Under the pieces are notes generated by a model, which worked only from the letters and a program-made list of their open reading frames with translations, made no database searches and was not told the origin of the DNA. Shown here piece by piece: positions 20,304 through 21,922 of a stretch of DNA of 63,847 nt (position 1 is the stretch's first letter; each line of letters starts with the position of its first letter). The DNA is from Actinomycetales bacterium (lineage in GTDB: Bacteria; Actinomycetota; Actinomycetes; JAJZTN01), in contig JBQCDV010000155.1 of assembly GCA_051960855.1 (NCBI GenBank), positions 1-63,847 of the forward strand, written 5' to 3'. The position numbers were made by a program, and so were the translations under genes.

Positions 20304-20927
20304 TCAGCTCAGCGCATTCTGCAGGCTCTTGAGAAACAGCACGTAGGCGGTGGCGCCGGGGTCGGGGTGACCGGAGCCACGCTCTCCGACCCAGGCTGCC
20401 CGGCCTCGCCGACCTGCCTGATCGCGCGTCTCCTCGACGCCCTTCTCGGCGGCGGCGACCATCGCTGTCAGTGCGTCGTTCTTGTTGTCGCGCAAGGCGT
20501 CGAGGCTCGGCGCGAGCGCGTCCAGCACCGTCTTGTCACCGAGCTCTGCCTTCCCCCGCTCGGCGATGCGAGCCATGGCAGCCCGGCCCACTCGCTCGGC
20601 GAGCGCGTCATCCCATTCCGAGGCATCCCCCACCTCCTTCGAAGCGGCGAGGAGCCCGGCCCCCACGAGCGCCGCCATCGTCGAGGGGTTGGCCTTCGCG
20701 AAAGCGGCGCCGGCGCTGCGCAGCAGAGCCCCGACGGTCTCGGGCGGGTTCTCCTTCAGCGCCTGCCGGATCGCCTCCGAGCCCTTGTCCACGGTGATCC
20801 CCAGGTCACCGTCTCCCACGGCCGCATCGAGGTCCCGCAGGGTCTCCCGATGGCTCGATAGGTTCTGTAGTGCCGAGTCGAGCACGGCCACGACCTCGTC
20901 CACTCGCATGGCTCGACCTGCGCTCAC
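20304..20927 (-). CDS. dhaL: Dihydroxyacetone-kinase-family L subunit (DAK2 domain)
   Basis: LDAAVGDGDLG, GKAELGDKTVLDAL, GRAAWVGER..GHPDPGA. Confidence 0.92.
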   Translation of the reverse strand: MSAGRAMRVDEVVAVLDSALQNLSSHRETLRDLDAAVGDGDLGITVDKGSEAIRQALKENPPETVGALLRSAGAAFAKANPSTMAALVGAGLLAASKEVGDASEWDDALAERVGRAAMARIAERGKAELGDKTVLDALAPSLDALRDNKNDALTAMVAAAEKGVEETRDQAGRRGRAAWVGERGSGHPDPGATAYVLFLKSLQNALS

Positions 20928-21922
20928 TGCTGGAAGAACGGCGAGGAGGCGGGGGCGTCGAGCAGCTCGGTGAGCTCGTCGTCGAGCCGCATCACGGTGA
21001 CGGACGCTCCCGCCATCTCGAGGCTCGTCGCGTACTCACCGACATAGCGGCGGTGAATGCTCACGCCCTGGTCAGCGAGCCGGTTGTGGACGCGGCGATA
21101 CAGCAGGTACAGCTCCTCGAGCGGAGTCGCGCCCAGTCCGTTGACCAGCACCGCGACGCGGTCACCTGAGGTCAGCTTGAGGTCATCGACGATGACGTCC
21201 AGCATCCGGTCGGCGACCTCGTCGGCGGTCTCGAGCGGGCCGCGGTGCTGACCGGGCTCGCCGTGGATGCCGATGCCGATCTCCATCTCGCCGTCGGCCA
21301 GCTCGAACGTCGGCTTGCCGGCGGCGGGCAGGATCGTCGGTGACAGGCCCACCCCCACGGTGCGGGTGCTGTCGACGGCGCGCTGGGCGAGCGCGGCCAC
21401 GGTGGCCAGGTCATCTCCCCGCTCAGCGGCAGCGCCGGCGACCTTGTAGGCAAACAGCAGTCCGGCCACTCCGCGCCGCTCGCTGCTGCGCTCCGCAGGG
21501 GCGCTCAGCGCGTCGTCGGTGACGAGCACGGTCGCCGTCTCGATCCCGTCGAGGTCGGCCAGGTCGGCTGCGAGGTCGAAGTTGAAGACGTCGCCGCCGT
21601 AGTTGCCGTAGAGGTAGAGGACGCCTGCTCCCCCGTCAACGGCCTTGGTCGCTGCGTACATCTGCTCGGACGACGGGGACGAAAAGACGTTGCCGACCGC
21701 GACGCCGCTGCACAGGCCGACACCGACATAGCCGAGGAACGTCGGCAAGTGGCCAGATCCGCCGCCGGTCACGATCCCGACGTGGCCCTGACGAGGAGCG
21801 TCCGCCCGGACGAGCGCGCGCCGGTCCTCCGAGGCCGCCTTCAGCCGGTCCGGGTGAGCCAGCAGGAGTCCGTCGATGACCTCGTCGACGAAGTCCTCGG
21901 GGTCGTTGATCAGCTTCTTCAT
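20924..21922 (-). CDS. dhaK: Dihydroxyacetone-kinase-family K subunit (DAK1 domain)
   Basis: MKKLINDP, GGGSGHLP, GNVFSSP, NYGGD..NF, RRGVAG, EIGIGIHGEPG, TSLEMAG. Confidence 0.92.
   Translation of the reverse strand: MKKLINDPEDFVDEVIDGLLLAHPDRLKAASEDRRALVRADAPRQGHVGIVTGGGSGHLPTFLGYVGVGLCSGVAVGNVFSSPSSEQMYAATKAVDGGAGVLYLYGNYGGDVFNFDLAADLADLDGIETATVLVTDDALSAPAERSSERRGVAGLLFAYKVAGAAAERGDDLATVAALAQRAVDSTRTVGVGLSPTILPAAGKPTFELADGEMEIGIGIHGEPGQHRGPLETADEVADRMLDVIVDDLKLTSGDRVAVLVNGLGATPLEELYLLYRRVHNRLADQGVSIHRRYVGEYATSLEMAGASVTVMRLDDELTELLDAPASSPFFQQ

Follow-up and report, generated by a model that had tools for sequence, protein, structure and literature searches.

The paired genes dhaK and dhaL, at positions 20304 to 21922 of contig JBQCDV010000155.1 (Actinomycetales bacterium, assembly GCA_051960855.1), most likely encode a previously undescribed type of accessory enzyme: a split kinase of the dihydroxyacetone kinase (DAK) family that, judging from sequence comparisons, is independent of DhaM and has been recruited to importer-linked loci of the dihydroxyacetone phosphate (DHAP) shunt. 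We refer to the whole contig, 63,847 nucleotides long and designated C155 within its genome, as the window; the operon that holds the pair was read within it together with its divergent and convergent neighbors. The pair falls within a separate clade of DhaM-less kinases and is the second, paralogous pair of a genome that has a canonical pair on another contig, C73.

dhaK (20924 to 21922, minus strand) encodes the substrate-binding subunit (Pfam Dak1, 2e-119) and dhaL (20304 to 20927, minus strand) the nucleotide-binding subunit (Pfam Dak2, 1.8e-39). They close a packed minus-strand operon of seven genes, mtnA-SBP-ATPase-permease-mtnK-dhaK-dhaL, in which SBP is a substrate-binding protein and dhaL comes last. 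The TGA stop codon of mtnK (21924 to 21922) and the ATG start codon of dhaK (21922 to 21920) have a single base in common, and the dhaK stop codon (20926 to 20924) sits inside the GTG start of dhaL (20927 to 20925), forming a GTGA overlap; dhaL has a further in-frame ATG at 20909. These overlaps, read directly from the sequence, confirmed the gene order and the translational coupling to mtnK that the original prediction had described.

Aligned with E. coli DhaK, the window DhaK retains residues corresponding to His56, Asp109, and His218, and DhaL matches E. coli DhaL at all three Mg-binding Asp positions. All of the DAK-family residues are kept: the hemiaminal His and the acid-base His and Asp in the K subunit, and the Mg-binding Asp triad in the L subunit. 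Across the clade, 95 of 332 DhaK positions are invariant. From the intact catalytic residues and this conservation, dhaK and dhaL are predicted to form an active two-subunit DAK-family kinase. A role chiefly in sensing or co-regulation, like that of E. coli DhaK and DhaL toward DhaR, in place of a catalytic step in the pathway is in our view very improbable. Fusions of a SorC-type regulator to DhaK do exist in alphaproteobacteria (P0046, P0048, and P0062), among more distant relatives with 54 to 56% identity, and in Burkholderiaceae a GntR regulator is gained or lost as a unit with the importer and dhaKL. Against such a role, the catalytic residues are all kept, the regulator in the window carries a UTRA effector domain of its own, and the E. 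coli proteins are themselves enzymes as well as regulators.

To place the pair, we fetched 80 loci with DhaK orthologues of 67 to 94% identity, from Actinobacteria, Burkholderiaceae, and Chloroflexi; the collection searched is based on GTDB, and the order of the window genome holds only two genomes in it. mtnK lay in the same locus as the clade dhaK in 26 of the 80, from two phyla. These 26 include close relatives of the window locus (L007 to L010, with DhaK and MtnK 74 to 94% identical) and about 20 Burkholderiaceae species, whose clusters have the colinear order gntR-mtnK-mtnA-aldolase-SBP-ATPase-permease-dhaK-dhaL. Thirteen of 150 Burkholderiaceae genomes sampled carried this mtnK. Eleven of the 13 clusters were full, with the SBP, the ATP-binding cassette (ABC) genes, and dhaKL, and two consisted of mtnK-mtnA-aldolase only, the regulator, importer, and dhaKL all missing together. 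Orthologues of the window SBP (56 to 68% identity) were found in exactly the 11 full-cluster genomes and in no other of the 150. Because mtnK and dhaK occur together in 26 of 80 loci from two phyla and in 11 of the 13 mtnK-bearing Burkholderiaceae genomes, their adjacency cannot be put down to chance. Coupling or co-location of the two genes was seen in Actinobacteria, Burkholderiaceae, and the genome G390, and a natural MtnK-DhaK fusion protein of 715 amino acids (P0002) exists. Another natural fusion, P0010 (651 amino acids), joins a PfkB ribokinase-like domain to DhaK.

When the two phyla are compared, identity is 56 to 68% for the importer proteins and 71 to 75% for DhaK but only 35 to 46% for MtnK, MtnA, and the aldolase. 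The same three enzymes are 67 to 76% identical between importer-less and full Burkholderiaceae clusters, the same range as among the full clusters. dhaKL thus tracks the importer and not the three core shunt enzymes, and it is most likely an add-on acquired together with the ABC importer. Since this co-inheritance is strict in two phyla, the pair probably carries out a sugar-phosphorylating step not yet described, and use of the external substrate would need a phosphorylation beyond the published three-enzyme scheme. We found no literature that links mtnK or the DHAP shunt to DhaK or DhaL; publications on this shunt and on salvage of 5-deoxyribose describe transporters and a mutarotase in some clusters and mention no DhaK or DhaL. 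The suggestion of an undescribed step therefore looks right.

A profile search found no phosphotransferase system (PTS) genes within the window; the EIIA-Man, HPr, and EI-N domains of this genome all lie on C73, not on C155. The absence of DhaM from the window, as noted in the original prediction, thus stood. The genome itself does have dhaM, which a search found in a canonical dhaK-dhaL-dhaM operon at C73:7510-9447. Over C73:7510-10362 (loci L001, L002, and L004), the EIIA-Man, HPr, and EI-N parts of DhaM share one open frame of 939 amino acids, and no EIIA-Man, HPr, or EI-N domain was found elsewhere in the genome.

Split DhaK and DhaL are classically PTS dependent and fused enzymes ATP dependent, and in the PTS-dependent form a phosphoprotein recharges the ADP that stays bound to DhaL as a cofactor. 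The window pair could accordingly be an ordinary phosphoenolpyruvate (PEP)-dependent dihydroxyacetone (DHA) kinase that mops up free DHA, the ADP on its DhaL being recharged in trans by the C73 DhaM-HPr-EI fusion. The complete fusion encoded in the genome, the split architecture, the 284-bit match to E. coli DhaK, and the barely missed cut-off of TIGR02363 would all fit, yet we think this quite unlikely. No DhaM match lay within 10 kb in any of the 80 loci. An EIIA-Man domain was absent from the entire genome in 12 of 39 other clade-carrying genomes, and in 8 of these 12 the pair is split (two Actinotignum genomes, Nocardioides, Aquipuribacter, Nocardia, Actinotalea, and two Chloroflexia), so that the clade, with near-identical active-site motifs, persists in EIIA-Man-free or PTS-free genomes. 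Actinotignum schaalii, for example, is reported to lack EI, HPr, and DhaM and to retain dhaK and dhaL (PMC5720513). In all eight actinobacterial carriers checked, dhaM adjoins a different, higher-scoring canonical dhaK with its own dhaL alongside, and in none of seven Burkholderiaceae genomes checked does the EIIA-Man gene adjoin a dhaK. The K-domain tree and the signature residues described below also separate the clade from the DhaM-linked kinases.

The clade has its own motifs. Its DhaK proteins carry GGGSGH(L/M/I)P.F, GN(V/I)FSSPS, and GNYGGD, and its DhaL proteins carry GDGDLG(I/V)T, with GDGDLG in 79 of 79 members. Nine DhaM-linked actinobacterial pairs instead have GGGSGHEP.H in DhaK and GD(A/G)DHG.N in DhaL, most canonical DhaKs scanned have GE(V/I)FTSP and KNYTGD, and GD[AG]DHG was found in 11 DhaM-linked DhaLs. 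The clade DhaL motif is also unlike those of E. coli and L. lactis; the DhaK comparison was with E. coli only. Eleven of the 79 members are K-L fusions, and these appear to have arisen apart from the fused lineage of the C. freundii and TKFC type. Genomes often hold two to four clade paralogues. The active-site motifs are virtually identical between mtn-linked members and those in other contexts: beyond I/L, S/T, and L/M swaps, we found no residues specific to mtn-linked DhaKs, and where active-site motifs do vary by group (L63K among DeoR-linked members, F113Y among fused ones), the change does not mark the mtn group.

We then compared the clade with LerK, described as the L-erythrulose 1-kinase of M. 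smegmatis and, like DerK, as a fused, ATP-dependent enzyme in the portions of PMC10733421 and PMC13753588 that cite Huang et al. (2015). LerK is a ketose 1-kinase that also accepts D-erythrulose (PMC13753588). By-eye translation of the start of M. smegmatis lerK, as far as it is printed in the supplement of PMC10733421, gave GGGSGHYPAFAGWVG, GNIFSSPS, and GFGNYAGD. A sequence from the Mycobacteriaceae genome sample, L122, was about 93% identical to LerK by eye over the 133 residues printed and matched the printed lerK at 39 of 42 bases; it served as the anchor of the LerK group, and the M. smegmatis L domain was read from this orthologue only. The clade and LerK have several departures from the canonical sequences in common: E to N in GN.FSSP, K to G in GNY.GD, H to F (an F at His+4), and the loss of the Glu after the catalytic His. 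The change of His to Leu after the third Mg-binding Asp (GDGDLG) was considered as a marker of ATP use and dropped; because the orthologue of the ATP-dependent LerK keeps GDGDHG, we take GDGDLG as a clade signature only.

In a tree of 51 K-domain sequences, including four LerK-like fused kinases, the split between the window clade plus the LerK-like kinases and the canonical split plus HEP-type fused kinases received a Shimodaira-Hasegawa-like approximate likelihood ratio test (SH-aLRT) value of 100. The clade thus probably groups with the erythrulose kinase LerK rather than with the DhaM-linked kinases, although the LerK branch in this tree is long. In the comparison with DerK and LerK that the original prediction had called for, the pair probably falls among relatives of LerK and DerK, a placement that favors its idea of a second substrate over a plain DhaM-dependent DHA kinase.

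Several observations weigh against a DhaM-independent, LerK-like kinase. A topology in which the clade instead joins the canonical DhaKs of actinobacteria had a log likelihood lower by 35.6 and is only marginally worse, not being formally rejected by the approximately unbiased (AU) test (P = 0.054). The window DhaK is 51% identical to the canonical DhaK of its own genome versus 43% to the LerK orthologue, and it is nearer to E. coli DhaK (284 bits) than to the ATP-dependent enzyme of C. freundii (162 bits). The window genome does encode DhaM, so use in trans is conceivable here. The authors of PMC5720513 consider a DhaM-less pair unable to phosphorylate DHA with either donor. The canonical shunt makes no obvious DhaK substrate, and the import-coupled shunt of E. 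coli runs without clustered DhaKL (PMC12632272). The family models give a mixed picture: among NCBIfam models, both subunits score best with the fused family NF011049 (452 bits for DhaK and 151 bits for DhaL), DhaK falls narrowly under the cut-off of TIGR02363 (396.8 against 406.25), DhaL falls narrowly under that of TIGR02365 (132.2 against 138.3), and the model for ATP-dependent fused DAK, TIGR02361 (cut-off, 575), is far from being reached (272 bits for K and 103 bits for L). Taking both sides together, we think it probable that the pair is a DhaM-independent DAK-family kinase and an importer-linked add-on to the shunt, with free ATP as its most likely phosphate donor. The case for ATP comes from the PTS-free carriers, the fused clade members, and the kinship with LerK.

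The proposed pathway would begin with phosphorylation at C1 by MtnK and isomerization to a ketose 1-phosphate by MtnA, after which the class II aldolase would split this product into DHAP and an aldehyde. In this scheme the conserved His of DhaK would hold a small sugar that has a free carbonyl, and phosphate transfer by DhaL would bring that sugar back into the phosphorylated pool. The original prediction reasoned that the shunt itself needs no DHA kinase, and this agrees with published work, in which the canonical route on 5-deoxyribose or methylthioribose makes neither free DHA nor glyceraldehyde (PMC6079011, PMC12632272). The aldehydes formed with DHAP, acetaldehyde and methylthioacetaldehyde, are not possible DhaK substrates; glyceraldehyde may become a candidate if the imported sugar is hexose-like. 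The active site is alike in all contexts, which argues for a common small substrate; that dhaKL goes strictly with the importer and MtnK speaks instead for a role peculiar to the compound taken up. We tentatively place a triose, DHA or D-glyceraldehyde, first among the candidate substrates; 5-deoxy- or 5-methylthio-D-ribulose comes second as a less favored choice, and a tetrulose or another sugar seems less likely still.

The second of these candidates would make the pair an ATP-dependent 1-kinase for 5-deoxy-D-ribulose or 5-methylthio-D-ribulose, perhaps in a complex with MtnK, and would open a second, isomerase-independent entry to the aldolase. We regard this as possible but rather doubtful. 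These ketoses should not cyclize and so should offer the free carbonyl that DhaK needs, and their phosphorylation at C1 would yield the aldolase substrate directly, alongside the aldose route through MtnK and MtnA; the source would be imported or dephosphorylated ketose. The probable grouping with a ketose 1-kinase, the translational coupling to MtnK, the MtnK-DhaK fusion, and the strict co-inheritance with the importer, with importer-less three-gene clusters lacking dhaKL, are all consistent with it. So is G390, a genome 97% complete, in which mtnK-dhaK-dhaL and, at another place, a class II aldolase are present and MtnA-family genes are lacking. On the other side, no enzyme of the locus makes the free ketose, the RbsB-like SBP would be expected to prefer a cyclic sugar, DhaK has no mtn-specific residues, and the same motifs recur in loci unrelated to 5-deoxy sugars.

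The G390 locus (L087, G390:C2:5352-11600) consists of fucU, gntR, and mtnK-dhaK-dhaL, followed by an AiiA-like lactonase of the metallo-beta-lactamase fold and an SBP; no IF-2B/MtnA-family gene was found in this 2.0-Mb genome. Its sole class II aldolase, in a separate FGGY-ABC cluster, was considered and rejected as an explanation for an mtnK-dhaKL locus without MtnA. Pairing of dhaKL with the lactonase recurs in L020, L027, L034, and L051. In Glaciihabitans (L052 with G411:C6:157425-158390), a fusion of a class II aldolase to a short-chain dehydrogenase/reductase (RhaEW-like) stands in place of the separate aldolase and alcohol dehydrogenase (ADH), and the locus retains a divergent mtnA, mtnK, fucU, an HIBADH-like gene, gntR, the orthologous importer, and dhaKL. 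The Zn-dependent ADH is missing from the locus in Burkholderiaceae and is therefore not a fixed partner; ADH orthologues 58 to 60% identical to that of the window adjoin dhaKL in the non-mtn loci L012, L013, L081, and L048.

Away from mtnK, the clade occurs in several conserved settings. In actinobacteria, a DeoR-SBP-ABC-dhaKL cluster continues with HIBADH-like, BtpA/SgcQ, FGGY, and M29 or M42 genes (L071:4220-16032, L075, L076, and L012) and at times includes the Zn-ADH as well, and we found no literature description of such BtpA/FGGY/DhaKL clusters. A second setting has a SorC- or LacI-type regulator, FGGY, a fused kinase, and SBP-ABC genes. In a third, GntR/FCD, TctC, an aldolase of the dihydrodipicolinate synthase (DHDPS) type, TctA, and a fused or split DAK occur together (L019:5314-11704, L077, L063, and L079); the order DHDPS-dhaK-dhaL is also seen, with an enolase-superfamily dehydratase close by. 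The TctC/DHDPS/DAK clusters appear to encode a sugar-acid pathway with a free aldehyde among its products, and free glyceraldehyde is the product expected in the DHDPS contexts. A class II aldolase near dhaKL in Actinotignum was considered as a shunt aldolase and set aside; it adjoins araA and was read as a putative AraD-type gene of arabinose use.

Triokinase captures glyceraldehyde in animal fructose breakdown. By analogy, the window pair could be a triokinase for D-glyceraldehyde, if the imported sugar is, or also includes, a hexose-type analogue of a ribofuranose whose ketose 1-phosphate is split into DHAP and glyceraldehyde. The DHDPS-family aldolases that adjoin clade members, with sugar-acid transporters and the dehydratase, in Thermobifida, Georgenia, a metagenome-assembled genome (MAG) of Microbacteriaceae, and Nocardia would suit this role. 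DhaK follows PfkB and FGGY sugar kinases as well, which fits one kinase for each half of a sugar, and RbsD/FucU and ribokinase genes lie in the neighborhood. We nevertheless judge it unlikely for the window locus, where MtnK and MtnA score above the methylthioribose equivalog cut-offs and the aldolase has 6btd, a 5-deoxyribulose-1-phosphate aldolase, as its nearest solved relative. A change of specificity is likewise not indicated by the 67 to 76% identity of the core enzymes between importer-less and full clusters.

All three core enzymes of the DHAP shunt are clustered in the window. mtnK (21922 to 23058, minus strand) encodes a 5-methylthioribose/5-deoxyribose 1-kinase (TIGR01767, 370 bits; cut-off, 275) that matches B. 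subtilis MtnK (2olc) with 243.6 bits; a 677-amino-acid open reading frame (ORF) over mtnK is a run-on upstream across the permease gene. mtnA, the first gene of the operon (26802 to 27845, minus strand), encodes an aldose-1-phosphate isomerase (TIGR00512, 366.6 bits; cut-off, 279). The class II aldolase of the DrdA/Ald2 kind (29729 to 30445, plus strand, with its start between 29729 and 29777; Pfam Aldolase_II, 1.4e-54) has as its best solved relative 6btd, with 186.7 bits (E. coli FucA scores 127 bits); 6btd is the B. thuringiensis enzyme (PMC6079011). The importer comprises a ribose-type (CUT2) ABC permease (23064 to 24113, minus strand; NCBIfam RbsC-like, 252.6 bits, under all equivalog cut-offs), an ABC ATPase with two nucleotide-binding domains (24124 to 25623, minus strand; two Pfam ABC_tran matches, NCBIfam AraG/XylG/RbsA-like), and an RbsB-like SBP (25693 to 26805, minus strand; Pfam Peripla_BP_4, 2.4e-60) whose best solved relative is 2ioy (221.6 bits).

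Divergent from the operon, on the plus strand, lie a GntR/HutC-type regulator (27909 to 28667; Pfam GntR and UTRA domains) and a Zn-dependent alcohol dehydrogenase or aldehyde reductase (28727 to 29728, start approximate; NCBIfam adh_fam_2/AdhP/Ahr-like), whose family match begins at residue 112 of its long ORF. Beyond the aldolase is an RbsD/FucU-family mutarotase (30445 to 30864, plus strand; Pfam RbsD_FucU, 1.9e-32). A PfkB-family ribokinase gene (19299 to 20246, plus strand; TIGR02152, 296.8 bits, just short of the cut-off of 299.65) converges on dhaL and is found at the equivalent position in L007 and L008. The two converging genes, dhaL and rbsK, are separated by a strong hairpin (20250 to 20302; −44.5 kcal/mol, z = −8.1 versus shuffles), probably a two-way terminator. 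Across 19299 to 30864, the proteins are 74 to 94% identical to those of L007 and L008, from MAGs labeled Motilibacteraceae and Intrasporangium, and the DhaK sequences of these two loci are identical to each other; this likeness to the window locus points to recent transfer or to a problem of MAG binning or labeling. A sulfoquinovose catabolic operon (31964 to 45225), which includes TauE, an aldehyde dehydrogenase, and an M24-fold protein, directly adjoins the shunt locus, and we found no functional link between it and dhaKL. A single ORF at 15023 to 16687 (minus strand) combines a pyridine-nucleotide-disulfide oxidoreductase domain with an S-adenosylmethionine (SAM)-methyltransferase domain.

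DhaK/DhaL pairs of PTS-free bacteria have so far been a puzzle or have been taken as inactive (PMC5720513). The clade described here has many carriers among Actinobacteria, Burkholderiaceae, and Chloroflexi, includes both split and fused members, has no adjoining DhaM, and probably groups with erythrulose kinases, and the question of its phosphate donor is therefore directly testable. Genetic work is easy in carriers that can be cultivated, such as Paraburkholderia kururiensis, P. sartisoli, and Caballeronia sordidicola. If the pair is indeed a ketose 1-kinase, it would represent a new enzyme activity, a new pathway step, and proof that a split DhaK/DhaL can run on ATP.

Four known systems invite comparison. 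C. freundii DAK and human TKFC resemble the window pair in the presumed ATP donor and the two-domain chemistry, and some clade members are K-L fusions; C. freundii DAK is, however, a distant relative (162 bits for K and 42 bits for L). The DhaKLM systems of E. coli and L. lactis likewise have separate K and L subunits, the same catalytic His/Asp/His, and the same Mg-binding Asp triad, and they provide the closest solved structures (284 and 73 bits); in contrast, the window locus and many clade genomes are without DhaM, and both subunits score under the equivalog cut-offs. With the DHAP shunt (MtnK/DrdK, MtnA/DrdI, and Ald2/DrdA; PMC6079011, PMC10986504, PMC12632272), the window locus shares the three core enzymes and, as in some published clusters, a transporter, a FucU-like mutarotase, and an aldehyde-reducing ADH; it differs in DhaK and DhaL, which are inherited strictly with the CUT2 ABC importer and are absent from the published cluster descriptions. 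LerK and DerK differ from the window enzyme in being fused rather than split into two genes and, for the LerK orthologue, in a K identity of only 43% and in having GDGDHG where the window DhaL has GDGDLG. Pfam and NCBIfam scans of the neighbors found no polyol or tetritol dehydrogenase and no erythrulose-phosphate isomerase in the window locus, and its ADH is of the AdhP/Ahr type, unlike the tetritol dehydrogenase of the LerK/DerK loci. The likeness lies in K domains that probably group together (SH-aLRT, 100, with an AU P of 0.054 for the rival topology), in shared substitutions next to the active site, in the absence of DhaM from both, and in a setting within actinobacterial sugar loci that carry an ABC importer.

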